IMG/VR virus record: IMGVR_UViG_2778260992_000001
Length of the DNA stretch: 64,000 nt
Direction: 5' to 3' (one strand)
Source of the DNA: a virus
Lineage: Duplodnaviria; Heunggongvirae; Uroviricota; Caudoviricetes
Shown: piece after piece, positions 6,757 to 53,857 of the stretch
How the letters are laid out: each line of letters opens with the position of its first letter
Position numbering within the stretch: the stretch's first letter is position 1
Program-made: the position numbers and the translations under genes
The notes under the pieces: generated by a model
Told to the model about the DNA's origin: nothing
The model's database searches: none
The model's input: the letters and a program-made list of their open reading frames with translations, nothing else

Positions 6757-6773
6757 TAAAACAATTTGTTTTC
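6757..6773. promoter_or_regulatory. class-1 palindrome AAAACAA-N-TTGTTTT (operator-like)
   Basis: TAAAACAATTTGTTTTC; first of more than 10 copies. Confidence 0.6.
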
Positions 6774-6806
6774 TGCCTTTTGTTGATTGAGATAATAAAC
6801 CACATA

Positions 6807-6823
6807 AGAAAACAACTTGTTTT
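6807..6823. promoter_or_regulatory. class-1 palindrome
   Basis: AGAAAACAACTTGTTTT, 13 nt upstream of ORF 6836. Confidence 0.6.
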
Positions 6824-6835
6824 GGAGTGGTTTAA

Positions 6836-7135
6836 ATGTTGAACATTACCCAAGCCTACCAGGTGGCATTGATCAGCTCATCTCATACATCAGAGGAAGA
6901 TGCTCGCCGATTCATGATCGCAAGCAATGAGCTGGATTGGGTTTCACAAATTGAGTACGGTTGCATTGTCCACGCCGGGTTACAGGATGATGTCTGGAAA
7001 GACAACTTGCGTCGATATGGTATATCCGAGGGCGCGATTTCGAACATTCAGAAGGTACTTGATGTAGGCTTCGACTCTGTACATTTCGATTGTGGCGCAC
7101 CGGTCGTTGAAGGGCTTGAGTGCTGGCAATGGTAA
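6836..7135 (+). CDS. hypothetical protein
   Basis: ATG with GGAGTGG Shine-Dalgarno; first ORF after class-1 motifs. Confidence 0.5.
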   Translation: MLNITQAYQVALISSSHTSEEDARRFMIASNELDWVSQIEYGCIVHAGLQDDVWKDNLRRYGISEGAISNIQKVLDVGFDSVHFDCGAPVVEGLECWQW

Positions 7136-7171
7136 TCCGGCAATCGCTTCATACTAGATAACGGAGAATTT

Positions 7172-7357
7172 ATGCTTAAAGAAGACTCATATCTACTAAA
7201 GGCGCTTGAAATGCGTGGCGTTGAACCTACAGTGAAAAACGCCCACGATATCTACCTTCAGTTTTCACCGGAGCTGAAACGGCTCATAAATCAATACGGG
7301 GTTAATGACTCAAGTGTTAAAGCGATGATAGATGATGAATTAGACCATCTCATCTAA
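7172..7357 (+). CDS. hypothetical small protein
   Basis: ORF with Shine-Dalgarno. Confidence 0.4.
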   Translation: MLKEDSYLLKALEMRGVEPTVKNAHDIYLQFSPELKRLINQYGVNDSSVKAMIDDELDHLI

Positions 7358-7509
7358 TCGTTATCCTATGATAATGGTTTCACTTTGAGATTGTCATTTT
7401 TCATAGCCAAAGCTGATGTTTGTGGAAGGTGGATTGATAAACGGATGCGTATTTAGGTTATACAAGTGAGAAAATTGATAATATATAAAAGCGATTTTTA
7501 TGTGATGGA

Positions 7510-8079
7510 ATGGATGTGATGGAAACCCAGAACCAACAAACAAAACCTCTGAATAACATTTATGCGTGGATTCTAGCGTTCATGCCTTTCTTCTTTGGAG
7601 TATTGCCGGAAGAGTATACCAATTACGCTATTATAATTGGGGGTGTAACTACCATCGGTTTGTTAGTAGCTGACAGAATGGCTCTATCGGAGTCTGGCTG
7701 TGAACCACCTTCAATTCTATGGGGGGTATTCCTCCTGCCTGTCTATCTCTGGAAGCGCGCGACTATTACAAAAGGCAGCAGAGTGCCATTTATCATAATC
7801 GTTGCGTCGCTGGCTTGGATTATCTTCATCGGCATCCCACACAAGGACGAGGTTGCTCTTGAAGAAGCAGCCTGCCCTCTCGTGACAACTATTCTGAAAG
7901 AGAATAACGGTTCGACTGCACCAAAATGTATGAAGGTGACAATAGAGGACAAGGTGACGGATAAGTTCTATAGAGCAACGGCTACACTAGACAATGGTAA
8001 TGACATTAACATTACTCTGGAACTTACCGGTGACAGGAACTTCTACGTCCGTGTTCCAAATGTTTATCTGAACAACTAA
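7510..8079 (+). CDS. hypothetical integral membrane protein
   Basis: Several hydrophobic helices in translation (AWILAFMPFFFGVL, FIIIVASLAWIIFIGI). Confidence 0.5.
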   Translation: MDVMETQNQQTKPLNNIYAWILAFMPFFFGVLPEEYTNYAIIIGGVTTIGLLVADRMALSESGCEPPSILWGVFLLPVYLWKRATITKGSRVPFIIIVASLAWIIFIGIPHKDEVALEEAACPLVTTILKENNGSTAPKCMKVTIEDKVTDKFYRATATLDNGNDINITLELTGDRNFYVRVPNVYLNN

Positions 8080-8225
8080 CGGTTGCAACTTATTGATAAT
8101 GGCGGTCACAATTTGATTCTTTTCTATAAGAATCCGTTGATCGCCACTACTCCCCTTCCATACCTGCAATCATACCCTTAAATATCAATAGGTTATGGTT
8201 GTTTATACAAATAAGAAAACAACTA

Positions 8226-8945
8226 AATAACAGATCAACGAAACGTCAACGCTTTCACCCGATTTGGTCTAAAAAATTGACGTTTTCACACATCACTTCT
8301 TATACCCGTAACTCTACGCAGCAGACAGCGCCACAGCGTCCAATTTTCACCACAGACGACCCAACACACTACCAACAAAAACACACGCTCAAAATCGCTC
8401 CCGTTGCGTTACGCAACCATATAAACAACTTATTTTCAGGCATAACAAAACAACTAAATAACACACATGCCATTCCCAAAAACAACCAACCTCTTTATGG
8501 CAGGCTACCGAAAAGACCCACCTCTTCTCCCCAGGCTACCGGACAACCAACCTAACTTTCACAGGCAATCCGAAAACATTCATACGCGCGATACCCACGA
8601 CACGCCATTACCCAAACAGCGAAGAAATACCAGACTCACTGAAACCCCAACGAAGCCTGTTACCGCAAGGATTCTCTCAATCCCAAAAGACACGAAACAG
8701 AACAATCACGGGAAACGCCATTACCCAATACACGAATAACTACAAAAGCCTTTCAGGCACTCCAGACAAACAACTCAAACACAATAACGAAAGCAATCGC
8801 CCACCTGCCATTACTCCATACACGGAGAAGAACAATCACCAAAACGACGAGAACACCCCATAGAAGAACCACCGCAAAACGAACGAAACCACATACACCG
8901 ACAGAGAAAACAACACACCCAATTCACCAACAGAAATAGTCGCCG
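8226..8945. other. noncoding A+C-rich (G-poor) strand-skewed region
   Basis: About 0.7 kb without credible ORF; plus strand dominated by CAAC/ACAA/AAC runs. Confidence 0.55.
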
Positions 8946-9140
8946 TATAGGACATTCTGGAAGGAGTGAGCATTAACGCCTATAGAGAGGTTGAGACAGA
9001 TAAAACACAACATGTATAGCGAAGAAGCCAGGTATGTATAAGTGGGGATGGAAGGAGGGGTGTCGCCTCCTTTTTCGTATTTATTCAACTCCTGATTTTA
9101 TCCCCCGTAACACCCCTACGGTCAGCCTTCGGTCCATACA

Positions 9141-9271
9141 GGGGAAAGGCTGCATCCCGCTACAGAAACGGCTGGGTTGCCTTTGGGAACGGCTGGAGGT
9201 TTTCAGGGAAACGGTCGAGTTGCCTGTGTGGATTTCGGGAAAAGGCTCGATGCCGGTTCAGGAACGGTGGC
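9141..9271. repeat. iteron array 1: six GRAAACGGC-like repeats at about 21-bp spacing
   Basis: Copies starting near 9144, 9164, 9187, 9208, 9239, 9261 in a G-rich noncoding stretch. Confidence 0.6.
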
Positions 9272-9600
9272 GTACCGGTATAGCGAGAGGGAGAGTTGCG
9301 GCTACCCACCTGTAATGTGCGGGAAGAAGAGAGGCGCTCACGTAGGCGGACTTGCTTACCGCTGGATTCCCTCTGAATGCCCAGCTACAGCGTAATTGTG
9401 CCAGACAGCCAACGGGTCACAATCGATTTCAGTAGGTTTTTGGGGAGAGGATTACTCTGCCACCAGCCACTTTCGGCCACTAAATCAGAATAATGTAAAA
9501 AGTGTACTCGGTACTGAACCTGAAAACTCACTGCCAAAACCACATTCACCGGAACAAAATCCTTTTTCGCCTGTGCGTTATTGCGATAATAACACCATCA

Positions 9601-9617
9601 AGAAAACATGTTGTTTA
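9601..9617. promoter_or_regulatory. class-1 palindrome
   Basis: AGAAAACATGTTGTTTA; the track ATG at 9608 lies inside it. Confidence 0.55.
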
Positions 9618-9628
9618 AGGATTGCTTT

Positions 9629-9958
9629 ATGTTTACAAATATCGACATCAACCAAATCAAGAAATTAACTCAAAAAGAGTTTGATCAGTTTTATGAGTTA
9701 GAAGGTTGGTCTTCCACTCTGATCAATTCAAGATGGGTGCTGGAACTGATGACTCGTGATGACGCACCTGCTTTGATGATCAGCGACCTGGGTGAAGATG
9801 CTGACTTTATGGATATGAGCGAATTTTGTGTGGACACATACAACCGCAGCCAGAAGTACTACTTCACATGCGATAGCGAAAATGACGTGATTTCTAAGGT
9901 CTATCTTCACCTCGTCCAGCATTGGGACGTTCAGGAGTTTCTTGAAGTATTCGAGTAA
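9629..9958 (+). CDS. acidic small early protein (hypothetical)
   Basis: ATG at 9629 after AAGGA; product strongly acidic (about 22 D/E vs 8 K/R). Confidence 0.5.
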   Translation: MFTNIDINQIKKLTQKEFDQFYELEGWSSTLINSRWVLELMTRDDAPALMISDLGEDADFMDMSEFCVDTYNRSQKYYFTCDSENDVISKVYLHLVQHWDVQEFLEVFE

Positions 9959-9967
9959 CCCCAACCA

Positions 9968-9990
9968 AAGCCAGCATTGCTGGCTTAATT
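9968..9990 (+). terminator. hairpin AAGCCAGCATTGCTGGCTT
   Basis: Perfect stem immediately after stop. Confidence 0.5.
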
Positions 9991-10083
9991 TCTCTATAGC
10001 CGCAGGGAAGAACCTGCATATAGCTCATGCACCTGATCAATATGCTTTGTAGCCGTTTTCTTACTGGTATTATTTACGCCATT

Positions 10084-10101
10084 GAGAAAACAAGTTGTTT
10101 A
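10084..10101. promoter_or_regulatory. class-1 palindrome
   Basis: GAGAAAACAAGTTGTTTA; track TTG start 10082 overlaps it. Confidence 0.55.
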
Positions 10102-10111
10102 CGGAGTTGTG

Positions 10112-10423
10112 ATGAAAAAATCATTGGTTCTTGGTCTGGACAAAGACCAGAAGAGAAAAGAGAAGCCTGCGCTGGTTGCTCAATTAACTTTGCTGGACAT
10201 CGTTGCCAATGGAACCTCTATTCGTCTGTTCCGTGAAACAGCGGTGTCTTTCGATAAAAACACCTTTACTCGTTATGTAATGAATGTTCGTCGCCAGCGT
10301 GGAAAAGGCTGGGTGGCATTTCAAAGAATGTGGCCGGAACATCAGCTCGAACTGGCTTTGATGGAAGTTAACCGCGTGGCCCAGCAAGAGATTCAGAGAG
10401 CATCAGTGATGGCAATAGCCTGA
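10112..10423 (+). CDS. hypothetical basic small protein
   Basis: ATG at 10112 after ACGGAG; in frame with track ORF 10082. Confidence 0.5.
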   Translation: MKKSLVLGLDKDQKRKEKPALVAQLTLLDIVANGTSIRLFRETAVSFDKNTFTRYVMNVRRQRGKGWVAFQRMWPEHQLELALMEVNRVAQQEIQRASVMAIA

Positions 10424-10457
10424 TAATGTGCAAGTGGTAATTAGTCGACCGTACGAC

Positions 10458-10487
10458 AGCCCCGCCATCCTTACGGGGCTTTTTTGT
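10458..10487 (+). terminator. rho-independent terminator
   Basis: GCCCCG..CGGGGC stem plus TTTTTT. Confidence 0.65.
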
Positions 10488-10549
10488 ATTGTAAGTACAT
10501 ACTTACGATCATAGAATATAAAAATAACCAAAACACTACGGAGAGTGAA

Positions 10550-10945
10550 ATGACCGTTAAACGCGAAAAACTGACAGTTGATGTTTACTATGCCTCTGAA
10601 ACCGCCGAAGGTAAGAATGTGGCAAAAATCACCGTTGTTACGTACAACACCGAAACTGGTGCCGAAGTCCAGGCCAGTACGATCGTGCGTAAAGGTGATG
10701 CCTCCGGCGGCGAGTACGCGACTCAATACCAGTCCATTCTCGATGCAACTGACCCGCTGCTGCTGAAAATCGAGAACTACTTCCGCCAGGTTAATGAAGA
10801 GGTGTTTGAAACCATGATGAATATGGTTAACACCGTATTCGCCTCCAGCCTGAATACCAACACTACCTGGATTGGTCAGTACGGCCTGCGCATTACCTCT
10901 GGCATTCCTGCCGACACCTTAATCCCTGAAAGCGTATTCGCTTAA
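10550..10945 (+). CDS. hypothetical protein
   Basis: ATG at 10550 after GGAGAGTG; in frame with track ORF 10484. Confidence 0.5.
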   Translation: MTVKREKLTVDVYYASETAEGKNVAKITVVTYNTETGAEVQASTIVRKGDASGGEYATQYQSILDATDPLLLKIENYFRQVNEEVFETMMNMVNTVFASSLNTNTTWIGQYGLRITSGIPADTLIPESVFA

Positions 10946-10954
10946 TCCTCTTTA

Positions 10955-10982
10955 AATGGCGCGTAAACCGCGCCATTTTATT
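10955..10982 (+). terminator. rho-independent terminator
   Basis: ATGGCGCG-TAAAC-CGCGCCAT plus TTTTATT. Confidence 0.65.
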
Positions 10983-10989
10983 ATGCCCG

Positions 10990-11005
10990 ATAACAATTTG
11001 TTTTC
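10990..11005. promoter_or_regulatory. class-1 palindrome (variant)
   Basis: ATAACAATTTGTTTTC with the same CTGCCTT tail as the 6757 copy. Confidence 0.5.
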
Positions 11006-11062
11006 TGCCTTATCTGATTTGTGAAAATGATTTCACTGAAGCAACTTAATAAGGAAACCATC

Positions 11063-11437
11063 ATGGGACTTGATATCTATATCGAGACGCAGCCTAAAAA
11101 CGATCTGAATAACGAGGCATCCAGAAAGCAGGTTGCTTACTTCCGTAAGTTCAATGCGCTCGTTGGGTGGATGGAGCGCAACGTAGGTGAAGTCGAAAAT
11201 TGTGAGCTTTTAGAATTAACGATGAATGACATTTGTTTTCTGAAGGCTCATTTGATGCACATAAACGAAAGTAATTGCGAAGAGTACTTGCCTACCCGGG
11301 AAGGTTTTTTCTTCGGCAGTCAGGAGTACGATGAAGGTTACTGGCATGATGTGGGGCAGTTGAAAGAGCTTGTGGAAGATCTGATTAAGAACCACGACTT
11401 TCACAATAACAGACTGACCTTCTGCGCCTGGTGGTAA
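11063..11437 (+). CDS. acidic small early protein (hypothetical)
   Basis: ATG at 11063 after AAGGAAACC. Confidence 0.5.
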   Translation: MGLDIYIETQPKNDLNNEASRKQVAYFRKFNALVGWMERNVGEVENCELLELTMNDICFLKAHLMHINESNCEEYLPTREGFFFGSQEYDEGYWHDVGQLKELVEDLIKNHDFHNNRLTFCAWW

Positions 11438-11439
11438 AT

Positions 11440-11583
11440 ATGGGCGATTTCAAGAAACGCCTGAAGGAAAGAGCCGAGATGGTCAGAAAGCAAAACGCCT
11501 CTTCTGTCATCAGATACGCAAGGCAGTTTAGTCGCAACAACAAATCAGTTGAGGAAAAGATCCTTAGCGTAATCGGGCGATAA
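11440..11583 (+). CDS. hypothetical small basic protein (47 aa)
   Basis: Short ORF read manually between stop at 11437 and hairpin at 11590; not in track. Confidence 0.3.
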   Translation: MGDFKKRLKERAEMVRKQNASSVIRYARQFSRNNKSVEEKILSVIGR

Positions 11584-11589
11584 TTATTA

Positions 11590-11612
11590 AGGCCACCAGC
11601 ATTGGTGGTCTT
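11590..11612 (+). terminator. hairpin GGCCACCAGCATTGGTGGTC (copy 1)
   Basis: Near-identical copy at 12062; no strong U-tract. Confidence 0.45.
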
Positions 11613-11737
11613 AAATGACTTTTAATAACCGAAGGTTAGTTTGAAACCTGGCTATCAACTTCCATAACCTTTCTTGTGTATTCAGCCTGTATTAACTTCT
11701 TTTATGCCTTATCTACACTGCGATAATTACACCAACA

Positions 11738-11754
11738 AGAAAACAACATGTTTA
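11738..11754. promoter_or_regulatory. class-1 palindrome
   Basis: AGAAAACAACATGTTTA preceded by shared CGATAATTACACCAACA box. Confidence 0.55.
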
Positions 11755-11772
11755 CGCAGTTAGGATATGCTC

Positions 11773-12054
11773 ATGACTGATTTCACCATTACCCCTAAAG
11801 CACAAAATGTATTTCTTGAATCATGGCTGGACTTGCCGGAAACAGAACAGCAAGAAATGGATCATGTGGATTATGACGAGCAGGTAAGCACGCGATTCTT
11901 CCACTTTGAGGGATGCGTTTACGACATTGTCGACTTCATGCGAGATGACCGCTTCCCTGAATGGCACGCAAGCTATCCACTAAACGCCTTTGCCATGCTG
12001 ATGATCCGTGTGGATGATTCAGGGGATACCATCGACATCGGTCTGCTCCACTAA
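11773..12054 (+). CDS. acidic small early protein (hypothetical)
   Basis: ATG at 11773 after AGGA; about 19 D/E vs 4 K/R. Confidence 0.5.
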   Translation: MTDFTITPKAQNVFLESWLDLPETEQQEMDHVDYDEQVSTRFFHFEGCVYDIVDFMRDDRFPEWHASYPLNAFAMLMIRVDDSGDTIDIGLLH

Positions 12055-12061
12055 AGGCTAA

Positions 12062-12081
12062 GGCCACCAGCATTGGTGGCC
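12062..12081 (+). terminator. hairpin GGCCACCAGCATTGGTGGCC (copy 2)
   Basis: Perfect 8-bp stem, 4-nt loop; same flanks AAGG..TTAAATGAC as copy 1. Confidence 0.45.
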
Positions 12082-12222
12082 TTAAATGACTATCTTGTTT
12101 CCCGCAGGCTAAAAACACCAACCTCTTACCTCCAGGCAACCGACAAACCCACCTGTTCCCGTCCGGCTACCGTAACTTTCCACTTTGACGCCTTATTCGT
12201 ACAACGATAATTAACACCAACA

Positions 12223-12239
12223 AGAAAACAATTTGTTAT
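12223..12239. promoter_or_regulatory. class-1 palindrome
   Basis: AGAAAACAATTTGTTAT preceded by shared ACGATAATTAACACCAACA box. Confidence 0.55.
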
Positions 12240-12258
12240 TTACGATAAGGAATTAATC

Positions 12259-12741
12259 ATGAATTTTATCGCTACTGTAAACGCACCCGCACATGGCAAT
12301 ATCGCTGTAACGTTCTCTGACATTGAAAAACGAGTACTTGGTGCATGGCGCGACAATGAGACGGTAGAACTGTCAGCACAAGAAAAATGCATTATTGCAC
12401 GCGACATCATTGGCAATCGTCGTTACTCGCGGGTATTTGAAAAAGCGTATGTGGTAAATTCTGGATTCGGAACGTTCGTCTTTCCGGTGCGCTCCGGGCG
12501 ATTCTGCCAGTCCAAGCTGATTGAGTTCGCTACGCAGATTTCTGTCTGGATTAAAACTCAATCGTCGTTCAAATTTTCCGACGATGAAGCAGTATCGCAG
12601 GGGATGCGGATCGCCAACAATGCAATTAAATGCAAAAACATTACGTATACCGCTGGCGTTGATACATGGAAACTGTTTTGCGCTAACTTTATGCTGAATG
12701 TATACGCAAGCAACCGCATCCACATCCTTGATGGCGTGTAA
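12259..12741 (+). CDS. hypothetical protein
   Basis: ATG after TAAGGAATT; last rightward early gene. Confidence 0.5.
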   Translation: MNFIATVNAPAHGNIAVTFSDIEKRVLGAWRDNETVELSAQEKCIIARDIIGNRRYSRVFEKAYVVNSGFGTFVFPVRSGRFCQSKLIEFATQISVWIKTQSSFKFSDDEAVSQGMRIANNAIKCKNITYTAGVDTWKLFCANFMLNVYASNRIHILDGV

Positions 12742-12748
12742 CTGAGAA

Positions 12749-12772
12749 GAGGGCCAGAAACGGCCCTTTCTC
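12749..12772 (+). terminator. rho-independent terminator
   Basis: GGGCC-AGAAAC-GGCCC plus TTTCTCT. Confidence 0.6.
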
Positions 12773-13860: not shown

Positions 13861-14511
13861 TTACGCTTTGAAAGCATCAGCTAAATAATTGTAGAAATCA
13901 TTTTTAATGAAGCGATATTGCTGAGTACCAGCTTTCGCGCTCCCAGCTCCTTTGACTTTTTCAACAAGTCCAAGACGTTCGCAAAGATTGATCAACTGGT
14001 TGGCTTGAGTATAACCAGCGTCCAATTTAATTTCACACGCTTTTTTAGCTTCATTCATTAAATCGAAAACAGCGCCATTAGTGAACGTGTCGATCTCGTC
14101 GTTAATCATATCGATTAAAGCGAATACACGAGATCCAGACATATCAGCGATGGAATAAACGCATTTACCAGATTTAATTGATTTAACCAGATAAACCAGT
14201 TTTTCCAGAGAATAACTATTAGTCATTGCATCACGGAAAAATACTTCTGGCGCTTGTTTGCTTGCTTTAATCGCATAGTAGAAAACAGAGCATAATTTTT
14301 CGTCTTCTACTGCGTTTACGACGTTGTTGATGAAGTAAGCAAGTTTAGTGGTCGCAGCTTGCATATTTGCTTTGTCTGCTTTAGTGTGCGTACCATTTTT
14401 ATAATGTTCGTTATATGTTTGAGTTGCCAGATCTGCTTTTTCGCGCAGTTCATCGGATACAATGGAAGCAGCTTCAATGATGGATTTTTTAGAAATGATA
14501 ATGTTAGCCAT
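13861..14511 (-). CDS. hypothetical protein, possible winged-helix C-terminus
   Basis: 216 aa; C-terminal LINLCERLGLVEK..QQYRF resembles a winged-helix DNA-binding segment (weak); monocistronic, AT-rich. Confidence 0.45.
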   Translation of the reverse strand: MANIIISKKSIIEAASIVSDELREKADLATQTYNEHYKNGTHTKADKANMQAATTKLAYFINNVVNAVEDEKLCSVFYYAIKASKQAPEVFFRDAMTNSYSLEKLVYLVKSIKSGKCVYSIADMSGSRVFALIDMINDEIDTFTNGAVFDLMNEAKKACEIKLDAGYTQANQLINLCERLGLVEKVKGAGSAKAGTQQYRFIKNDFYNYLADAFKA

Positions 14512-14756
14512 GATAATTTTTCCTTATGTAAATTTAAAATTTATTGTCGTTAGCGTCTTCGCTTTCGACGAGTTCAATTATCGATATGCGAAAAAAGATT
14601 GCAAGTGTTTTTTTTAAATTTTTTGCAGGGATGAAAGTCCTAGAAATAAAAGCGAGATCGTCGAAGGTGTTCCCTAAATAAATAATCGATTGCGGCTTTA
14701 GACCTTATATATATTTAGGTTATTTGATTTGTAGATATAAAGAAGTGATGTGAAAA

Positions 14757-15103: not shown

Positions 15104-15106
15104 AAC

Positions 15107-15631
15107 TCAAAAAGGCAAAATTCGTTCAACCCAATCGAACAAAACAACTATTTTTCTACCGTTCTCGACACGTAGTGTAACCTGACAAGCATCTGCGCCT
15201 GCTGACACCCCCTCAATTTCACGGCCATCCGCCATGTACACCCTTATAGATTTGTTTGCTTTGTAGGCTTGGTTGCAAATTGCAAAAAAATCGCGGCGTG
15301 ATGGCCGATTATCGACATAATCAGGGTGAACTGTTAGTCGACCTTTGAAATCGTGAGCGATACTGTCAACCACACCTGATTCAATTGTACTAATGCGTTC
15401 AAGTGGGAGCCTTATACGATTTTCTTTGTCAAAAGGGGCTGGGCAAAGGTCAACTTTGTTACGAGATGGCATGAGGCCATAAACGTACATGCAAAACGCC
15501 TGGCCATCTTCGAGAGTGACCCTTACAGGAATTTGTTCTCTGCGCCAGAACATCAGTAGTTTTTCAACGTTAGTGTAATCTCGCGGCCAGAGTTCAGCTT
15601 GGATACCGTAGGTAATATCTTTGGTTGTCAT
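15107..15631 (-). CDS. hypothetical protein
   Basis: Track ORF 15107..15709 trimmed to internal Met (MTTKDITYG) to avoid overlap with the lipoprotein gene. Confidence 0.45.
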   Translation of the reverse strand: MTTKDITYGIQAELWPRDYTNVEKLLMFWRREQIPVRVTLEDGQAFCMYVYGLMPSRNKVDLCPAPFDKENRIRLPLERISTIESGVVDSIAHDFKGRLTVHPDYVDNRPSRRDFFAICNQAYKANKSIRVYMADGREIEGVSAGADACQVTLRVENGRKIVVLFDWVERILPF

Positions 15632-15635
15632 GTCA

Positions 15636-16058
15636 TCACAGAGTTGTTGGCAGAATGTCGATGTCACCAGAATTGCTGGTGAACACCCTGAACGCTTTTG
15701 TGTCTCCATTCTTCAGAGTCGTTTCTCGCTCTTGACGAGCGGGGTTTAGAGCACATAAACCTGCACCTTCAAGAGATGCACCCACAATTAATTCTCCGGC
15801 ATTTAAATGAAAAGTCGCTTTTTCGCCTGTAGCCAGTTTTGCGACAGTTTCGCCATTGATGAAAATGGAAGCATCACATCCAGCTCCTACAAAACCTGTG
15901 TCTCTCATTACCACCAACGTAGCTGGCGCTGCGCTTTGATACTTGAACACTTTGGCCTGCGGTGCTGGTTTGGCGTCATGGATTGATATTGGACGTGATT
16001 GGCACGCGGTAAGCATCAACACTGGTAACGTTAGTAGAGGGAGAAGCGAGTATTTCAT
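15636..16058 (-). CDS. putative lipoprotein
   Basis: Signal peptide with lipobox LTAC (MKYSLLPLLTLPVLMLTAC); start moved to this Met. Confidence 0.55.
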   Translation of the reverse strand: MKYSLLPLLTLPVLMLTACQSRPISIHDAKPAPQAKVFKYQSAAPATLVVMRDTGFVGAGCDASIFINGETVAKLATGEKATFHLNAGELIVGASLEGAGLCALNPARQERETTLKNGDTKAFRVFTSNSGDIDILPTTL

Positions 16059-16126: not shown

Positions 16127-16405
16127 TTATTTTAATCTGCTTAATAGCGTTTCAAGATCTTCCTTTGTCATATTAGAGTTCTCATAGATACGCATGATTT
16201 TCTCACGAGTCTTAGCGGAAGCCCCGACAGAAGATATAACCTTGTCAAAGTCGGCCATTGTCAATTGTTCCAGAATGGTATTTATGACTTCAGCCTTAGA
16301 CATTTTGATATTTTTTTCTTTTAGTTTCACTTGAAACTTTCCAAGTTTGTCATTGGCCTTATCAGACAATGCTACCTGACAGTAAGTTGTTTTCTTTTCA
16401 CTCAT
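16127..16405 (-). CDS. hypothetical small protein
   Basis: ORF directly downstream of the helicase gene, same strand. Confidence 0.45.
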   Translation of the reverse strand: MSEKKTTYCQVALSDKANDKLGKFQVKLKEKNIKMSKAEVINTILEQLTMADFDKVISSVGASAKTREKIMRIYENSNMTKEDLETLLSRLK

Positions 16406-18010: not shown

Positions 18011-18032
18011 TAATAAGTAAGTGATTACTTAG
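18011..18032. promoter_or_regulatory. class-2 element TAAGTAAGT..TTACTTA
   Basis: TAATAAGTAAGTGATTACTTAG in divergent region between helicase and ParB-like genes. Confidence 0.5.
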
Positions 18033-20956: not shown

Positions 20957-21223
20957 ATGACGTTAACCGATAAACAAAAGGACATCATCAAAACGCTCAA
21001 TCTCGGTTATGAGCGAGGTCATCTACTTGACCTGGACGAATTGCTTGAAGTTTTGCCGTACAAGACAACCAAGCAAAGTATCCAGTTCTCAATTCGCGCT
21101 CTGATAAAAAAGGGGCTGGTGGAGAAAGGGCATACGCGCCAACGCAGTGACAATCGCTATCACCGCCGGACTCTTGGGTTAACCACTTTAGGTCGAGCCA
21201 AAGCGAAGTTACTGGTGATGTAA
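20957..21223 (+). CDS. small putative DNA-binding protein
   Basis: 88 aa, basic C-terminus; helix-turn-helix-like segment. Confidence 0.4.
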   Translation: MTLTDKQKDIIKTLNLGYERGHLLDLDELLEVLPYKTTKQSIQFSIRALIKKGLVEKGHTRQRSDNRYHRRTLGLTTLGRAKAKLLVM

Positions 21224-21337: not shown

Positions 21338-21354
21338 AGAAAACAAGTTGGTTA
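21338..21354. promoter_or_regulatory. class-1 palindrome (variant)
   Basis: AGAAAACAAGTTGGTTA. Confidence 0.5.
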
Positions 21355-21363
21355 GCAGATGCA

Positions 21364-21380
21364 GTAAACAAGTTGTTTTA
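21364..21380. promoter_or_regulatory. class-1 palindrome
   Basis: GTAAACAAGTTGTTTTA, about 40 nt upstream of the terminase small subunit candidate. Confidence 0.55.
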
Positions 21381-21418
21381 GAGCGCATGGACGCGCTCTG
21401 TGTGTTTTAGAGGGATCT

Positions 21419-22051
21419 ATGACGGTCGAAAAAGACGAGGTAAAAACTCGCCTGACACCAGCGGAGTGGGCCGAAGCTGAAGCCAAATGGACGTCAGGCG
21501 AATATACACTCTCAAAGCTGGAGGAAGAGTACGGCATTCGTCGTGAAACACTCTCCAGACATTTCAAAAAGCGAGGATTAGAGAAAGGCGCGGACTCTGT
21601 TGGGAAGATGGTTCGTGAGTCTCTTAAATCTGACGCAGAGCTTCGCGCTAAAGCCCGTGCGGAAAAGATAGAAGAACGTCGTACACGTTATGACGGCTGG
21701 GCGTATGCGTTGGGGCAGATGGTGATGGTCGAAGTCACTACGGCCAAACGTGAGGGTAAGCCTTTAGGGGCGATTGAGGATTCTCTCAAGAGCTTACAGA
21801 GAGCCAGTAATACCCTTGCAAAATGCTTTGAAGTTTCGTCCAAAGCATTGGGCATGGATCATGCGGAAAATGACGAGGAAGAAATTCCGAACCTGGTATT
21901 TGGTGAGCTTACGCCTTCCCAGGTGGCGAAATTACGTCAGGAAGACGACGAGCCTGAAATCATCGATGACGAATTGCTTGAGACGTTGGAAGAAGAAGCT
22001 CTAAGCGAATTTGATGCGACAGATGATGGAAGTGAAGGGGAGGACGAATAA
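21419..22051 (+). CDS. terminase small subunit (putative)
   Basis: N-terminal HTH-like segment, acidic C-terminus, immediately upstream of and overlapping terminase large subunit. Confidence 0.6.
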   Translation: MTVEKDEVKTRLTPAEWAEAEAKWTSGEYTLSKLEEEYGIRRETLSRHFKKRGLEKGADSVGKMVRESLKSDAELRAKARAEKIEERRTRYDGWAYALGQMVMVEVTTAKREGKPLGAIEDSLKSLQRASNTLAKCFEVSSKALGMDHAENDEEEIPNLVFGELTPSQVAKLRQEDDEPEIIDDELLETLEEEALSEFDATDDGSEGEDE

Positions 22052-23307
22052 TGGCAATCCCGTCCTCGCTCAGTCTTGTGCAACTGCATTCTGGACAGAT
22101 GAAAGTCTTCCAGTCTCCGCATCGATTTAAAGTTGTTTGTGCTGGTCGACGCTGGGGAAAATCCCGGTTGTCGATCTCCACTATTATTCGTGCGGCGGCA
22201 AAGGAAAAAAAGCAAAGGGTCTGGTATGTCGCTCCTACATACCAGATGGCTCGCCAGATTTTGTGGGACGATCTACAGGAAGTTCTGCCTCGTAAGTGGG
22301 TTAGGAAAAAGAACGACACCACGATGACAATCGTGTTGAAGAACGGTTCGGAGATCGCCCTCAAAGGTGCTGATAAGCCTGACACTCTGCGCGGCGTAGC
22401 GTTGCATTTTGTAGTGCTTGATGAATTTCAGGATATGAAGGCTGACACCTGGTACAAGGTGTTACGACCTACTCTTTCATCGACACGCGGCGGTGCACTG
22501 ATCATTGGTACGCCAAAAGGCTTCTCGGAATTTCACAAACTGTGGACTATAGGCCAGAACGTAGAGCTGCAAAGAAAGGGACAGTGGAAGAGCTGGCAGT
22601 TTGTAACTGCCGATTCTCCGTTTGTACCTACGGCGGAAATTGAAGCTGCTAAGAACGATATGGACCCGAAATCGTTCGCTCAGGAGTACCTGGCGAGCTT
22701 TGAGAACATGTCCGGGCGCGTTTACTACCCGTTCGATCGTAACGTGCATGTAAAACCGCTTCAGTTCAACCCTCGGTTGCCTATATGGGTAGGGCAGGAC
22801 TTCAACATTGACCCGATGTCTTCAGTAATTTTGCAACCTCAGCCAAATGGTGAGCTATGGGCAATTGATGAATTGGTGCTCTTTTCCTCTAACACGGCAG
22901 AGGTTTGTGATGAGCTTGAGAGACGCTTCTGGCGCTGGAAATCACAGATAACGGTATTTCCAGATCCGGCAGGTGCTTATCGCCAACATGCTCGCGGGGA
23001 GTCTGACGTCGACATATTCAAAGAGAAGGGATTCTTACGTGTCGATTATTCGAAAAAGCACCCGCCAATTGCGGATCGTGTTAATGCTGTTAACCGAATG
23101 CTGATGACCGCATCTGGAGATATCCGGCTGTATATCGATCCGAAGTGCAAGCATTTGATTGATTCACTGGAAAAAGTCATCTACAAGCCTGGAACACGAG
23201 ATATGGATAAGACAGGTGGCATTGAGCATAGTGCAGACGCATTGGGCTATCCAGTACATCGTAGGTATCCAGTCAAAAACCGTGTTATTCTTGGTGGTTC
23301 TCGATAG
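22051..23307 (+). CDS. terminase large subunit
   Basis: Walker A-like CAGRRWGKS, Walker B VVLDEF, C-terminal nuclease-like region; followed by portal. Confidence 0.85.
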   Translation: MAIPSSLSLVQLHSGQMKVFQSPHRFKVVCAGRRWGKSRLSISTIIRAAAKEKKQRVWYVAPTYQMARQILWDDLQEVLPRKWVRKKNDTTMTIVLKNGSEIALKGADKPDTLRGVALHFVVLDEFQDMKADTWYKVLRPTLSSTRGGALIIGTPKGFSEFHKLWTIGQNVELQRKGQWKSWQFVTADSPFVPTAEIEAAKNDMDPKSFAQEYLASFENMSGRVYYPFDRNVHVKPLQFNPRLPIWVGQDFNIDPMSSVILQPQPNGELWAIDELVLFSSNTAEVCDELERRFWRWKSQITVFPDPAGAYRQHARGESDVDIFKEKGFLRVDYSKKHPPIADRVNAVNRMLMTASGDIRLYIDPKCKHLIDSLEKVIYKPGTRDMDKTGGIEHSADALGYPVHRRYPVKNRVILGGSR

Positions 23308-23325
23308 GTAAGTAATTATCTAAGG
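23303..23325. promoter_or_regulatory. class-2 element (imperfect)
   Basis: GATAGGTAAGTAATTATCTAAGG before portal gene. Confidence 0.4.
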
Positions 23326-23333: not shown

Positions 23334-24908
23334 ATGGAATTGAACGACAAACAAATTAAGGATCTGGTGGCGCGACGCCACCCGGAATACGAAAAGAAAA
23401 AAGAACATTGGGACTTCCTCGCCAGCACTTACGCTGGCGGGCGTGGTTGGTTTACAGACAATATCTTTCGTTACTTTAAAGAGGGAGATCAGGAGTTTAA
23501 GGAGCGAGTTGAGCGTGCTTATCGCTTCAACCACACTCGTGAGGTGGTAAACCTCATCAACAAATATCTCTTTAAAGAAGACATTCATAGAAATATCGAA
23601 GAGGCACCAGAGCAGATCCGCAATTTCTGGAAACGTGCGACCCGCCAGAATGCCTCTATTGACTCATTTATGGCCGCTATTGATTTGCAGTCGTCTATTT
23701 ACGGTCGCATATGGGTTGTTGTCGATAGCACGATGAGTGGTGATGTTGAGTCAGTAGCTGACGAGAAAAAGAAAGATGCTCGCGCCTACGCCTACTGGAT
23801 TTCACCTCAGCAAATGCTGGATGTGGCATGGGACGACGACGGGAATATGTTGTGGGCGTTAATTGTGGAAGTCGCTCGTGATGACGCAGATCCTTTTACT
23901 TCTACAGGTCAGGAATACCAACGTTATCGTCTGTGGACACAAAACGAGTGGTATCTGTTCCGTGAGGAAGTGAAGAAGGGCGCTGGTGGAGCAGGTCGCC
24001 GTCAGGCAAAAGTTATTTTAGAGGATAGCGGTGCGCATAATCTCGGCGTAGTTCCTGTGTTTCCTGTTGATTGTATTGGAGAAAGTGAATCACCGTATTT
24101 CAGCCCATCGTTGATCGATGATATCGCTTATCTTGATCGTGCGGTTGCAAACTATCTGTCAAACCTTGATGCCATTATTCAGGATCAGACATTTAGCCAG
24201 TTGGCTATACCGGTACAGTCGCTTTTACCTGGTGATGAAAACCACACTAAAGTGCTTGAAATGGGCACAAAGCGAGTCTTCACCTACGATTCTGAAGGTG
24301 GAAACCAGCCGTTTTATCTGTCACCAGACCCGAAACAAGCTCAGATGATCATCACTACGATTAAGACGGTGATTAACGAAATCTACCATTCAGTTGGTGT
24401 AGCTGGTGAGCGAACGAAGCAGGACAACGCACAGGGAATCGATAACTCATCTGGTGCCGCAAAAATGTATGACTTCCAGCGTGTAAATAGCTTGCTTGTC
24501 ACAAAAGCAGAGCGTCTGGAAAGGGCTGAACGCCAAATCATGCTACTGGTTGCGAAATGGATGGGGGTAGATCTGGACGAAGACCACTCTTTAATTGCGT
24601 ATCCAGAAAGTTTCGATATTCGTGGCCTTACTGATGAATTTTCTGTTGCCGAGAAACTGTCGTTACTTCAGGCACCGGACTCTGTACGTCGTCACCAGAT
24701 GGAAATGCTGATTGAGAAGATTTTCCCGAACATCACTGAGGCGATGAAGAAGGAATTTGATAAAGATCTCTTGAATTTTCCGCCAAAAAATGATCTAAAT
24801 ACCCTTGAAAATAAGTCAGTACTTACTTATGATCAAGGCACAGCCCAAGAAAGCGGGCAAGATCAACCCCGAGGGAATGGGGACTCATCTACTCAAGAGA
24901 ACGAGTGA
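23334..24908 (+). CDS. portal protein
   Basis: 524 aa immediately after terminase large subunit. Confidence 0.7.
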   Translation: MELNDKQIKDLVARRHPEYEKKKEHWDFLASTYAGGRGWFTDNIFRYFKEGDQEFKERVERAYRFNHTREVVNLINKYLFKEDIHRNIEEAPEQIRNFWKRATRQNASIDSFMAAIDLQSSIYGRIWVVVDSTMSGDVESVADEKKKDARAYAYWISPQQMLDVAWDDDGNMLWALIVEVARDDADPFTSTGQEYQRYRLWTQNEWYLFREEVKKGAGGAGRRQAKVILEDSGAHNLGVVPVFPVDCIGESESPYFSPSLIDDIAYLDRAVANYLSNLDAIIQDQTFSQLAIPVQSLLPGDENHTKVLEMGTKRVFTYDSEGGNQPFYLSPDPKQAQMIITTIKTVINEIYHSVGVAGERTKQDNAQGIDNSSGAAKMYDFQRVNSLLVTKAERLERAERQIMLLVAKWMGVDLDEDHSLIAYPESFDIRGLTDEFSVAEKLSLLQAPDSVRRHQMEMLIEKIFPNITEAMKKEFDKDLLNFPPKNDLNTLENKSVLTYDQGTAQESGQDQPRGNGDSSTQENE

Positions 24909-26718: not shown

Positions 26719-26752
26719 TCAGTGTAGTAGATAAGCAGTTATCTATGTTAAA

Positions 26753-30297: not shown

Positions 30298-30304
30298 GTT
30301 AATT

Positions 30305-30322
30305 GGTAAGTATATACTTACC
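30305..30322. promoter_or_regulatory. class-2 palindrome GGTAAGTATATACTTACC
   Basis: Perfect 18-bp palindrome 50 nt upstream of major tail gene. Confidence 0.6.
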
Positions 30323-43725: not shown

Positions 43726-43745
43726 ATAGGTAAGTACTTACTTAA
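43726..43745. promoter_or_regulatory. class-2 palindrome (core GTAAGTACTTAC)
   Basis: ATAGGTAAGTACTTACTTAA upstream of side tail fibre gene. Confidence 0.55.
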
Positions 43746-47935: not shown

Positions 47936-47958
47936 TAGGTAGGTAAGTATATACCTAC
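47936..47958. promoter_or_regulatory. class-2 palindrome
   Basis: TAGGTAGGTAAGTATATACCTAC upstream of lysis cassette. Confidence 0.55.
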
Positions 47959-49050: not shown

Positions 49051-49051
49051 T

Positions 49052-50804: not shown

Positions 50805-50809
50805 TTCCT

Positions 50810-50908: not shown

Positions 50909-50925
50909 AGAAAACAAGTTGTTTC
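50909..50925. promoter_or_regulatory. class-1 palindrome upstream of parA-like gene
   Basis: AGAAAACAAGTTGTTTC. Confidence 0.6.
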
Positions 50926-50959
50926 AGACGATAATTATATACGCAAAGGGAACTCTCCA

Positions 50960-51628
50960 ATGACCAAGATCTTTGTGGTTGGCGGCACAAAGGGCGGGCC
51001 TGGCAAATCCACCGTTGCCCAGCAAATTGCCGTTTGCCTGAAAGTCAAAAAGAAGAAGAAGGTTTATATCACTGATATAGATATTCAGCGCACGACAACA
51101 AGCTGGTGTGAAGACCGTCGACAGAACGAAGACCTTGAGCTGATTCCTTTTGCATACGTTCAGGATGACATCATTAAGCACCTAAAATCGCTTCAGGGTA
51201 GAGCTGAGTTTGTAGTGGTAGATGCTGGTGGCTTTGACTCCGAAATTCAGCGACAAGCGATGCTGATGGCCGACGTTATCATTATCCCGCTGCGTCCTAA
51301 GCGTCGTGATTTGAAATCTTTACGTGACATCGATCCTATTATCGACAATGTTCGTAATGTAAACGATAAAGTGAAGGTCCGCGCGGTCATGAACCAGTGC
51401 CCGGCTTTGCCATCACAAGTGTCTCGCATTTTGGCGGCTAAAGAGATTGTCGAGACGTTTGGCATCGAGTCTGCGCCAGTCAATTTATATAACCGCAACG
51501 TCTATGATGATGCGGAAGAGTCTGGTCGTTCTATCTTTGAAATGACCGGTAGCGAGCGCGACAAAAAGGCGGAAGCCGAGTTTGAAGAATTTGTAGATTA
51601 TCTGTTGAGTCTGGAGGAAGAAGAATAA
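50960..51628 (+). CDS. ParA/MinD-family partition ATPase
   Basis: Deviant Walker A GGTKGGPGKST; 222 aa; followed by small overlapping gene. Confidence 0.8.
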   Translation: MTKIFVVGGTKGGPGKSTVAQQIAVCLKVKKKKKVYITDIDIQRTTTSWCEDRRQNEDLELIPFAYVQDDIIKHLKSLQGRAEFVVVDAGGFDSEIQRQAMLMADVIIIPLRPKRRDLKSLRDIDPIIDNVRNVNDKVKVRAVMNQCPALPSQVSRILAAKEIVETFGIESAPVNLYNRNVYDDAEESGRSIFEMTGSERDKKAEAEFEEFVDYLLSLEEEE

Positions 51629-51987
51629 TGTCCATGAAAATGGGTGACCTAGCAAAGCGCAAAGAGCCTGATGCACCGGCTAAGAACACAACTCCTTTGC
51701 GCCAACCAGTCAGACCACAGGGACGCCCGACTCGTGGCAAAGAGAAAATTAAAAGCCGCACAATGTCACTGGAGGACGAATACTTCGAACTGCTGGAGAT
51801 GATGAAGTTCATCCCTCGCTTCGAGAAGTTCACTCGTTCTGACGTGATTCGAGCAGCCATTTTCCATCTGGCAGAGAAGTCACCGCAGGAAATCGAGGAC
51901 ATCGTGAAATTGAATGAGGCGATCACCGCTGCCGATGTCACGATGCGTACCGATGAAATCAAACGAGAGTTGATGAAGAAAGGTTAA
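51628..51987 (+). CDS. ParG-like ribbon-helix-helix centromere-binding protein (putative)
   Basis: 119 aa, basic Pro/Arg-rich N-terminal tail, C-terminal RHH-like segment; start overlaps parA stop. Confidence 0.5.
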   Translation: MSMKMGDLAKRKEPDAPAKNTTPLRQPVRPQGRPTRGKEKIKSRTMSLEDEYFELLEMMKFIPRFEKFTRSDVIRAAIFHLAEKSPQEIEDIVKLNEAITAADVTMRTDEIKRELMKKG

Positions 51988-51990
51988 AAA

Positions 51991-52025
51991 TCATGCATTG
52001 GCGCAATGTACGCGCCAATGCATGA
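51991..52025. terminator. perfect 14-bp inverted repeat TCATGCATTGGCGC-N7-GCGCCAATGCATGA
   Basis: Between convergent parG-like and GIY-YIG genes; terminator or protein-binding site. Confidence 0.55.
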
Positions 52026-52039
52026 GTACAATGTCAGTT

Positions 52040-52807
52040 TTATGCCGCGCTAACACTATGTTCAGTCCTAACCACTCCAACCTTCACAAAAGGGCTACCG
52101 TAGCTTGGTGGCTTCTTGATTAATTTGCCAACATACAGTTTTCTAATATGCTCATCGGCTATTCTGCCAACAAATTCATAACGTTTTGTGTCGGGGCCAA
52201 GAGCTATATCCCTTGTAAAGTACTGCTGAGAACCGGCTTTGACCCAGCATTCAATCTGATAAACTTCCATTATCAGCCCACCATATGTAGCGTAGGCATA
52301 TTTGAGATTCTCGTCTCTTGGAACCTTTGCCCATACGCCACGCGTAGCTTCATATAATGCCAGAGCGGACATTCCTGACTTGTAGGTGCTGTTTAGCAGG
52401 AAGGCAAGACCGGCGTGCTCAGGAGCAATTTCAGTTTCCTCTTGCAGCACTAAGTGATGGTAGGCGTCCAGTGATATTCTGCCCATCATGGAACCACTTC
52501 CTCGTACCTTATTCGTAAGCTCTCCGACCCCCATAAGGTCGATGCATGTCGCCTCAACAAGTTTGGCTGTGGTTTCATCCATACCATGACGAAGTATATC
52601 TATGCCTAATTTTTTATTAGCCAAAAGTTCTTTGATCCGCATGGATTTGGGAGAGTCATCGGGATACTTGATGTGATCGAGACAACGAGTCGATTTGCCT
52701 TTTCCTATGTAAAACGGTCTTTTCATCTTGTCTTCTGTATCATAGAGACAGTAAACATAGTATTTAGCCTTATCCAATGATCTCGCGTATACCGATAAAT
52801 CGTCCAT
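52040..52807 (-). CDS. GIY-YIG nuclease-domain protein (possible homing endonuclease)
   Basis: N-terminal YVYCLYD..(11)..PFYIGKGK motif; opposite strand to neighbours. Confidence 0.6.
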   Translation of the reverse strand: MDDLSVYARSLDKAKYYVYCLYDTEDKMKRPFYIGKGKSTRCLDHIKYPDDSPKSMRIKELLANKKLGIDILRHGMDETTAKLVEATCIDLMGVGELTNKVRGSGSMMGRISLDAYHHLVLQEETEIAPEHAGLAFLLNSTYKSGMSALALYEATRGVWAKVPRDENLKYAYATYGGLIMEVYQIECWVKAGSQQYFTRDIALGPDTKRYEFVGRIADEHIRKLYVGKLIKKPPSYGSPFVKVGVVRTEHSVSAA

Positions 52808-52918
52808 TATTGCATCTCTTAGCTACTGACTAATGCGTTCTATTTTACACATAAGTTTTTAATCAATTTAACAGGCTCAAAGTGTAGAGCTTCTGGGCGT
52901 CTAAGACGACAAGTTATG

Positions 52919-52973
52919 CCTGCTTCTGTATATATTTAATAAGTTACTTATTATTTATATATACAGAAGCAGG
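52919..52973. repeat. 55-bp near-palindromic element, copy B (inverted copy of A)
   Basis: CCTGCTTCTGTATATATTTAATAAGTTACTTATTATTTATATATACAGAAGCAGG. Confidence 0.8.
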
Positions 52974-53058
52974 TCTTTTAAAAAGACACCCACCAGAACA
53001 ACTCCCTTCCGTTTCCACTTCCAAAAACTGTCACCAGTCGCTATCATCCGCTCATTGT

Positions 53059-53080
53059 GATAAGTAAGTAACTACCTACC
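53059..53080. promoter_or_regulatory. class-2 element
   Basis: GATAAGTAAGTAACTACCTACC upstream of ORF 53092. Confidence 0.45.
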
Positions 53081-53091
53081 AGGTGAGCCAC

Positions 53092-53832
53092 ATGAGCCAA
53101 ATCTTTTTTGATACCATTGACAACGACCAGTACGACTTCATGACAGAGTGGAATACCGCTGTTATGGACAAGTGGGTCGCTGAAAACATTGGTTTGTCGC
53201 GCTGCAAAGACGAGGCTGAACTCTTCGAGACGAAGTGGTTTGATTACCGCGATATGCATCCTCTCATGGCCACCTGTCTTTTTACGGAGGCATACAAACG
53301 TCAGTACTCAAATATCATGCTGACGCACGGTCGCGAACACTTTGAAACAGCTCCGTTCACCACCGGGTTAAAACGCCTGCCTTATCAGGAGTTGTCGACT
53401 GCCAATAAAACGTCTCTATGGAAAGCACGCCAGTTTGCTGACCGCTATTGCTGCTCATACGACTACTTTATCTCCACCGTTCTTTCCGCAGCTGCACGAC
53501 GGCTGTGGGACAAGCTGCCGCGCCCACAGCATTTATGGCAGCCAGAGCTGATTGAGATATTCGAAGAGAAATTAGCCAGACGCGCAACAACCCGTCTGGA
53601 TGACTCTCTCGTTAGCTTTAAGCATATGGGAGACATGCAGTTCAACCCGATTCAGGAAAGCTATTTTGAGTGGATTCTGGAGCGTTTACGCACCATCCCC
53701 CGCAGCAAGCGCATACGCGCAATTTTCTCCGCTATCTGGCTAATGGAAATCGTTCCAGAGCGCCTTATTTCCGCCCACTTTCCAGAAGAACTGGAAGAAG
53801 CACGGCGGTTTATTGATCCCCTATCTAATTAA
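53092..53832 (+). CDS. hypothetical protein (possible replication initiation or helicase-loading role)
   Basis: ATG 53092; function guessed only from position before DnaB-like helicase. Confidence 0.45.
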   Translation: MSQIFFDTIDNDQYDFMTEWNTAVMDKWVAENIGLSRCKDEAELFETKWFDYRDMHPLMATCLFTEAYKRQYSNIMLTHGREHFETAPFTTGLKRLPYQELSTANKTSLWKARQFADRYCCSYDYFISTVLSAAARRLWDKLPRPQHLWQPELIEIFEEKLARRATTRLDDSLVSFKHMGDMQFNPIQESYFEWILERLRTIPRSKRIRAIFSAIWLMEIVPERLISAHFPEELEEARRFIDPLSN

Positions 53833-53840
53833 CTAATACT

Positions 53841-53857
53841 AGAAAACAATTTGTTTA
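53841..53857. promoter_or_regulatory. class-1 palindrome
   Basis: AGAAAACAATTTGTTTA, 19 nt upstream of helicase start. Confidence 0.6.

Follow-up and report, generated by a model that had tools for sequence, protein, structure and literature searches.

The 64,000-nt stretch analysed here, hereafter the window (IMG/VR record IMGVR_UViG_2778260992_000001; Caudoviricetes), carries a recurring 17-base palindrome, class 1, in front of early, partition, replication and late genes. By megablast the window was an SSU5-like phage-plasmid; most of it aligned at 94–98% identity with Escherichia phage Cyrano (pLF82; about 96% identical) and with related E. coli elements. The Cyrano annotation was transferred to it, which placed the start of terS at 21419, of parA at 50960 and of a DnaB-like helicase gene at 53876. 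The early region (6690–12750) is a row of small genes of unassigned function, each with its own promoter and terminator. The par operon consists of parA, which encodes a small ParA ATPase of 222 amino acids (aa) without an N-terminal DNA-binding domain (50960..51628, plus strand; Pfam matches MipZ, AAA_31, CbiA and ParA), and a gene for a 119-aa protein (51628..51987, plus strand), which overlaps the parA stop directly downstream.

The consensus of the palindrome was G-W-AAACAA-n-TTGTTT-W-C, with a perfect 6+1+6 core and a symmetry that reaches 8+1+8 in the window and in the distant relative L130. In the window, the exact 16-mer AGAAAACAANTTGTTT occurred 5 times (0 expected) and the 13-bp core AAACAANTTGTTT 12 times at no more than one mismatch (0.53 expected). 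A 19-nt weight matrix, built from the sites themselves, gave 11 matches at a score of at least 20, with a clear score gap below them, whereas 200 shuffles averaged 0.01 and never exceeded 1. A preliminary description of this DNA had listed eleven copies and had named beforehand, as a possible refutation, a frequency not above expectation; the matrix recovered all eleven as real (centres 6765, 6816, 9610, 10094, 10997, 11747, 12232, 21347, 21372, 50918 and 53850), at a frequency far above that of the shuffles. To these 11 strong copies a degenerate twelfth was added at 8421–8437.

The positional bias toward gene starts held as well. On a crude map of open reading frames (ORFs), 9 of the 11 centres were intergenic, although intergenic DNA makes up 10.4% of the window (binomial p = 6e-8), and the remaining two lay only inside over-extended ORF starts; all sites were 20–75 nt before the start of a plus-strand gene. 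The dyad symmetry fits an oligomeric DNA-binding protein.

Promoter geometry and conservation

How far the palindrome centre stands from the best −10-like hexamer was measured in the window, three complete relatives and five distant loci (nine genomes or loci). Only two offsets were found among 47 high-scoring cases, measured from the centre to the first base of a TGnGATAAT-type hexamer: in 25 the hexamer begins 25 or 26 nt upstream of the centre, so that the centre falls near the inferred +13, and in 22 it begins 26 nt downstream, so that the centre falls near the inferred −38. The two positions are 51 bp apart, about five helical turns, and would thus be on nearly the same helical face. Both overlap the footprint of RNA polymerase (−35 region, or +1 to +20; transcription starts inferred from the −10 elements).

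Both positions are occupied at the promoter of gene 6836. There, a minus-strand palindrome (6757..6773, centre 6765, −38 type) overlaps the −35 region, and a plus-strand palindrome (6808..6824, centre 6816, +13 type) lies 21 nt before the ATG at 6836, which starts a DUF5983 protein; the two centres are 51 bp apart and have in common the extended −10 element TGAGATAAT (6788..6796, plus strand; read from the sequence), whose GATAAT, with its TG, begins 26 nt downstream of centre 6765. Further along the early region, plus-strand sites of the +13 type lie at 9602..9618 (centre 9610; after TGCGATAAT at 9582–9590 and before the ATG at 9629) and at 11739..11755 (centre 11747; again after TGCGATAAT), and sites of +13/+14 type, also on the plus strand, at 10086..10102 (centre 10094; after TGGTATTAT, before the ATG at 10112) and at 12224..12240 (centre 12232; after GATAAT, before the ATG at 12259 of a 160-aa protein). 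The minus-strand site at 10989..11005 (centre 10997) is of the −38 type relative to TGTGAAAAT (11020–11028) and is immediately preceded by a terminator hairpin. The degenerate copy, ATAAACAACTTATTTTC (8421..8437, minus strand), which was missing from the earlier list, is also of the −38 type and stands exactly 26 nt before TAAATA at 8455–8460; its orthologues in SSU5 and pJN2-26 match the consensus better. Outside the early region, plus-strand sites precede parA (50910..50926, centre 50918) and the DnaB-like helicase gene with its ATG at 53876 (53842..53858, centre 53850), and two lie ahead of terS, which opens the late operon (21339..21355, centre 21347, and 21364..21380, centre 21372; 25 bp apart). 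These operators are separated from the ribosome-binding site of terS by a terminator-like hairpin, GAGCGC-N6-GCGCTC followed by TGTGTGTTTT (21379..21410, plus strand), whose stem is kept in SSU5 and pJN2-26 while the loop varies; this arrangement suggests that the late operon needs antitermination as well.

Several statements of the preliminary description were amended by this survey. The early, partition and replication genes it had named do carry copies, but the controlled set is wider and includes the late operon. The sites at 6757 and 10990, the two reversed copies in the window, are opposite in orientation to the others, are of the −38 type and reach into the −35 region of the promoter that follows. 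The shared flanks do recur; the flank CGATAATTACACCAACA, however, is an extended −10 element (TGnGATAAT) with discriminator. What had been called half-copies at 8214 and 8447 is instead a 17-nt direct repeat, AAAACAACTAAATAACA, of which the 8447 copy holds the −10-like TAAATA at 8455–8460. Nor was the term promoter element supported as a description of the palindrome. The promoter itself is made up of the TGnGATAAT flank and probably also of the AAGAAA 5′ extension, since promoters without the palindrome in a relative from Moellerella still contain this extension (..cat(c/t)a(a/t)tAAGAAA..); the extra AAG on the 5′ side of the palindrome thus probably forms part of the start region.

The motif is widely kept. 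Class-1 copies per whole genome numbered about 18 in Cyrano, about 21 in SSU5 and about 17 in Klebsiella phage pJN2-26, and further carriers of the motif were a 145-kb K. quasipneumoniae element, contigs of Serratia, one metagenomic contig and a divergent lineage of Klebsiella. In these relatives it stands ahead of lytic-direction genes (terS, parA, dnaB, cobT, nrdB and many small ones) and never ahead of oppositely oriented genes. When the regions upstream of parA, dnaB and terS were aligned from four to six lineages, the palindrome appeared as a conserved island in diverged surroundings, and at the parA promoter it was the sole conserved block across six lineages. The position, by contrast with the sequence, can change: at the promoter of the 160-aa gene the window, SSU5 and pJN2-26 have the operator at +13, whereas L130 has it at −38 and locus L133 has both; in L130 the operators are almost exclusively at −38.

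These alignments bear on whether a regulator has to be assumed at all. Several early promoters share long flanks (cTTTnnnGCC, TGnGATAAT and ACACCAACA), and the AAGAAA extension stays where the palindrome is gone, as would be seen if the recurring sequence were a promoter cassette spread by duplication, with no dedicated regulator. That account was given hardly any weight: at the parA, dnaB and terS promoters the palindrome is kept while the flanks diverge, it occurs at two places of the cassette in opposite orientations and at exact offsets, and its dyad symmetry is maintained.

A useful outgroup for the regulatory code, and the most distant relative, is the element pW18-2-b of Moellerella wisconsensis (NZ_CP093251; L140–L142), an SSU5-like phage-plasmid of Morganellaceae with umuDC and a fimbrial operon. 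The class-1 palindrome was looked for at its phage promoters and not found, while a class-2-like palindrome was kept; upstream of parA, at the same place as in the window, a degenerate class-1 copy, AAACAAtATATTT, persists. This distribution suggests that the par operator may be ancestral and have spread later to phage promoters in enterobacterial lineages. The same distribution, with an identical motif in phage-plasmids of several enterobacterial genera and none at the promoters of the Morganellaceae element, could also arise if the site belonged to a host transcription factor common to Escherichia, Salmonella, Klebsiella and Serratia. We know of no enterobacterial factor with a matching consensus, and phage-encoded candidates with matching conservation exist, so that a host factor was considered very improbable.

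Probable repression and a candidate binding protein

Expression in the lysogen was taken from the RNA sequencing of a Cyrano lysogen (PMC9928086, S1 table), on a normalised scale with a floor of about 5 and a prophage median of 9.8. The genes behind the motif were at or near background in this state, the only one compared: terS 7, CYRAN_101 7.5, CYRAN_105 12.8, CYRAN_106 12.2, CYRAN_108 5.7, CYRAN_111 25.5 and dnaB 21 (PMC9928086), which fits repression. The par operon, which also has a site, was moderately on, with parA at 50 and CYRAN_29, the orthologue of the 119-aa gene, at 89 (PMC9928086).

The palindrome was accordingly assigned as the operator of a repressor, with a probability of roughly three in four. 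The rigid spacing to the −10 element, the conserved islands, the way in which orthologous promoters alternate between −38 and +13, and the lack of expression of the genes downstream in the Cyrano lysogen all support the view, put forward in the preliminary description, of an operator for a phage-encoded regulator. Since orthologous promoters swap −38 and +13 on the same face of the helix, a steric repressor that excludes RNA polymerase, rather than an activator, would be expected. The motif promoters have an extended −10 element and a poor −35 element, and a generic sigma-70 scan that required both hexamers called none of them, which tells against this assignment as far as the strength of the promoters without repressor is concerned.

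Nine of the 11 window sites, all in a single orientation, fall downstream of the −10 element and ahead of the ribosome-binding site, as would a motif of the RNA leader that controls translation or stability. A protein for such a role is encoded at 15107–15709 (minus strand): it matches the FljA family (PF03614, E = 2.5e-84) and, weakly, Hfq; the FljA family acts on the fliC mRNA leader, and the FljA-like protein is absent from the motif-free Moellerella element. The −38 sites, however, which make up about half of all sites and dominate in L130, lie upstream of the inferred transcription start and thus outside the transcript, which argues that the motif is not a leader element. An exact two-fold symmetry with a 1-nt centre also gives no stable hairpin, an asymmetric RNA binder would have no use for such symmetry, and the motif-bearing Serratia contigs have no FljA-like gene at the usual place. 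Control through the RNA leader was thus rated a most unlikely explanation. Apart from this question, the FljA-family protein appears as two tandem Sm/Hfq-like domains, is conserved in place among SSU5-like elements and is weakly expressed in the Cyrano lysogen.

Three small proteins had been named as possible regulators in the preliminary description (20957..21223, 60326..60541 and 16127..16405). None of them was the best candidate; the ParG-like 119-aa product of 51628–51987 fitted better and is tentatively proposed as the protein that binds the palindrome, at a little under even odds. The adjoining ParA yields Pfam matches that begin at residues 2–6, and the 119-aa sequence (..KIKSRTMSLEDEYFELLE..FTRSDVIRAAI..) has the strand/helix/helix pattern of ribbon–helix–helix proteins. 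An exhaustive HMMER search tied it to distant family members (E = 1e-13 to 1e-19), of which 4 of 10 match Pfam RHH_1 (best E = 4e-4) and one matches RHH_8 (E = 1.5e-5). The strand SRTxS and the helix-B segment TRSDVIRAAI were invariant in all homologues down to 48% identity, in parallel with the invariant motif; in the Moellerella orthologue the strand residues are retained, while the DNA-binding parts of the 92-aa and 216-aa proteins discussed below have diverged there. In an AlphaFold model of the monomer, helices 48–59 and 70–82 occupy the places of helices A and B and are followed by two C-terminal helices, all after a disordered basic tail. The gene is expressed in the lysogen, as the value of CYRAN_29 indicates, and the par promoter itself bears the motif. 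Between 50700 and 53900 no repeat array that might act as operator or centromere was found, the only features that recur elsewhere being the single class-1 palindromes before parA and dnaB.

A number of points weigh against this assignment. The 119-aa protein of the window has itself no Pfam match; the confidence of the AlphaFold monomer was moderate (predicted local distance difference test, pLDDT, 66) and a fold search with it was uninformative; and hhalign runs against known ribbon–helix–helix sequences aligned in register, with scores no better than those of controls. The type Ib centromere-binding proteins known so far recognise short repeats in arrays rather than single 17-bp palindromes. 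The Moellerella element keeps the strand residues without having the motif at its phage promoters, so that the protein alone fails to predict the regulon. The recognition elements of the 216-aa and 88-aa winged-helix proteins are likewise conserved across motif-bearing phages, and a protein that is made all the time would have to be removed upon induction. Sequence and profile searches of the PDB with the 92-, 88-, 119- and 200-aa proteins gave nothing useful. All homologues of the 216-aa and 119-aa proteins were on contigs or plasmids of SSU5-like type (about 100–115 kb), so that presence or absence outside SSU5-like elements is uninformative. The motif core and the candidate DNA-reading residues were invariant in all motif-bearing relatives found, which leaves no co-variation to exploit.

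The same repressor operator could instead be bound by the 92-aa protein encoded at 16127–16405 (minus strand), downstream of a UvsW-like helicase gene; by its sequence pattern, judged by eye, it is ribbon–helix–helix-like with a C-terminal helical extension. Its gene had the highest lysogen expression among the candidate regulators compared (CYRAN_117, 114), lies on the strand of the lysogeny-expressed genes and was present in every motif-bearing relative examined, Serratia included, while the strand region of the protein is divergent in Moellerella, which lacks the motif. Phages that have one and the same motif, however, differ at the predicted DNA-facing positions (Y/H/S/A/F at one, A/Q/K/L at another), none of the family members gives a match to a Pfam ribbon–helix–helix family, and the promoter region of the gene has no copy of the motif. 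The 92-aa protein was on balance regarded as an unlikely binder.

A winged-helix protein was thought similarly unlikely, whether as a repressor that shuts off the promoters after induction or as an activator. The candidates are a 216-aa protein (13861–14511, minus strand), the 88-aa protein (20957–21223), winged-helix by weak matches to LexA, Lrs14 and Sta1, and the 71-aa protein (60326–60541), which is silent in the lysogen and less conserved. The model of the 216-aa protein was confident and comprised a long N-terminal helical hairpin and a TubR-like C-terminal winged helix with a conserved recognition helix; the protein is restricted to SSU5-like elements. The three genes are, however, nearly untranscribed in the very lysogen in which the promoters are silent (CYRAN_113 5.9, CYRAN_123 7.8 and CYRAN_37 6.4 for the 216-, 88- and 71-aa proteins; floor about 5), the recognition helix of the 88-aa protein is unchanged in the motif-free Moellerella element, and activation from +13 is mechanistically unlikely, the more so as orthologous promoters swap +13 and −38. 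The promoter of the 216-aa gene (about 14570–14600, CTTGCA-N17-GATAAT) lacks a class-1 site and yet the gene is silent in the lysogen, which indicates that some other control acts there. The helix-turn-helix protein CYRAN_45 (HTH_XRE, 'putative repressor'), which lies outside the window, was rejected as the binder: SSU5 has the motif without this protein, the Cyrano and pJN2-26 versions share only 56% identity despite their common motif, and a different palindrome, GGTAAGnnCTTACC, is found at its own promoter.

If the 119-aa ribbon–helix–helix protein is the repressor, the operator, embedded in host-type promoters with an extended −10 and a weak −35 element, would be filled at −38 or +13 by a symmetric oligomer, each 17-bp site probably by a dimer of dimers, and RNA polymerase would be blocked. 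In the plasmid-prophage state at least 11 promoters of the window, and about 20 per whole genome, would thereby be off; the controlled set would comprise the small early-gene cassettes, dnaB and the late terS operon, together with the par operon, which would be controlled yet partly on, the protein autoregulating its own operon through the same site. The protein would then double as centromere-binding partition protein and global silencer. The full form of this scheme, in which the partition protein is also the master silencer, the approximately 20 dispersed palindromes act as operators and jointly as the centromere, and a variable CI/Cro-like module by the integrase gene is only the induction switch, is conceivable and rather doubtful.

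Other features of the window

An unrelated palindrome, TAGGTAAGTnnTTACCTA, was present at 10 places in the window (0.18 expected): 18014–18031, 23305–23322, 24812–24829, 26728–26745, 30303–30320, 43727–43744, 47940–47957, 53061–53078, 60985–61006 and 63879–63896. These sites lie mostly before or within late or structural operons (portal, tail fibre, holin), and one directly follows a TATAAT before a parB-like operon. It is frequent in Cyrano, SSU5 and pJN2-26 as well, and Moellerella has a variant form; a copy of its core is found at the promoter of the CYRAN_45 HTH repressor, outside the window.

In the early region each unit is an independent cassette in which a promoter with operator is followed by a single small gene and an intrinsic terminator. 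Hairpins that resemble terminators were located at 6694–6718, 9968–9986, 10930–10943 and 11587–11614. At about 8200–9000 the region contains a stretch of some 800 nt that is rich in C and A and poor in G and T (GC skew −0.14, AT skew +0.17), with repeated GCCATTACCCAA-like units and no convincing ORF, preceded by promoters that contain AAAACAACTAAATAACA (8214 and 8447); possible readings are a long non-coding RNA and an array to which a protein binds. At 2920–2939 a LexA box close to the consensus, TACTGTATGCATATACAGTA, lies 17 nt before a umuD-like gene (2956–3345, 129 aa) whose Cyrano orthologue is on in the lysogen and up in macrophages. The segment 62000–64000 is low in GC (0.37) and includes a 420-aa ORF (62504–63766, minus strand) that is absent from Cyrano at the same place and is probably an inserted accessory or defence gene.

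Relation to known systems

The arrangement resembles the C1 system of phage P1, also a phage-plasmid, in which one repressor serves many operators over a genome of about 100 kb, at replication promoters (ban in P1, dnaB here) and at those of late functions. P1 C1 is a monomeric protein of 283 aa that binds asymmetric 17-bp operators of the ATTGCTCTAATAAATTT type, whereas the site described here is a true palindrome of different sequence and the late operon itself bears operators; no C1 homologue was annotated or matched among the proteins examined. KorB of plasmid RK2 is a partition protein with a 13-bp palindrome (6-1-6) at a dozen sites, some of them abutting the −35 element on its upstream side (about −39), from which it represses many operons. 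The palindromic 6-1-6 site is a shared feature, and the repression of many operons by a partition protein would be another, but KorB is a helix-turn-helix protein of the ParB family that also acts at a distance, while in the present case +13 accounts for half of the sites and the candidate belongs to the ribbon–helix–helix class. Mnt and Arc of phage P22 combine a ribbon–helix–helix fold and a C-terminal oligomerisation helix with a symmetric operator of 17–21 bp bound as a tetramer, which is the mode proposed here; they differ in having a single operator each, in the immI region, and no sequence similarity to the protein of the window was detectable.

Closer to the par operon itself are omega (pSM19035, inc18) and ParG (TP228), small ribbon–helix–helix proteins encoded beside a small ParA that repress their own operon; omega also represses other promoters and is thus both partition protein and global regulator. 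Both differ in using arrays of 4–7-bp repeats at a handful of plasmid promoters, in contrast to the single, occasionally paired, 17-bp palindromes at about 20 promoters, viral lytic and structural ones included, described here. The biology of type Ib partition is summarised in PMC3130281. In the phage-plasmid N15, dispersed sites of the partition protein influence phage gene expression (Ravin, Rech and Lane 2008, as cited in PMC11652158), the dispersed sites being IR1–4 (PMC7205306). The N15 system is, however, of type Ia, with the helix-turn-helix protein SopB and four sites, and Sop was reported to aid late expression, not to silence many promoters. What sets the present system apart from P1, omega, KorB and N15 is the operator sequence, the two-position geometry, the number and kind of promoters and the class of the candidate protein. 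No description of the motif, or of SSU5-like regulation, was found in the searchable literature.

Clinical Escherichia, Klebsiella, Salmonella and Enterobacter commonly harbour SSU5-like phage-plasmids, which also carry resistance genes, and the par module was found on about 800 plasmid records. A single conserved operator code on about 20 promoters offers a direct experimental handle on their master regulator. If the binder is indeed the partition protein, a plasmid function would have been recruited to control a virus, extending what is known from N15, RK2 and inc18; were the dispersed sites its centromere as well, plasmid segregation and the maintenance of lysogeny would be coupled via one protein–DNA code.

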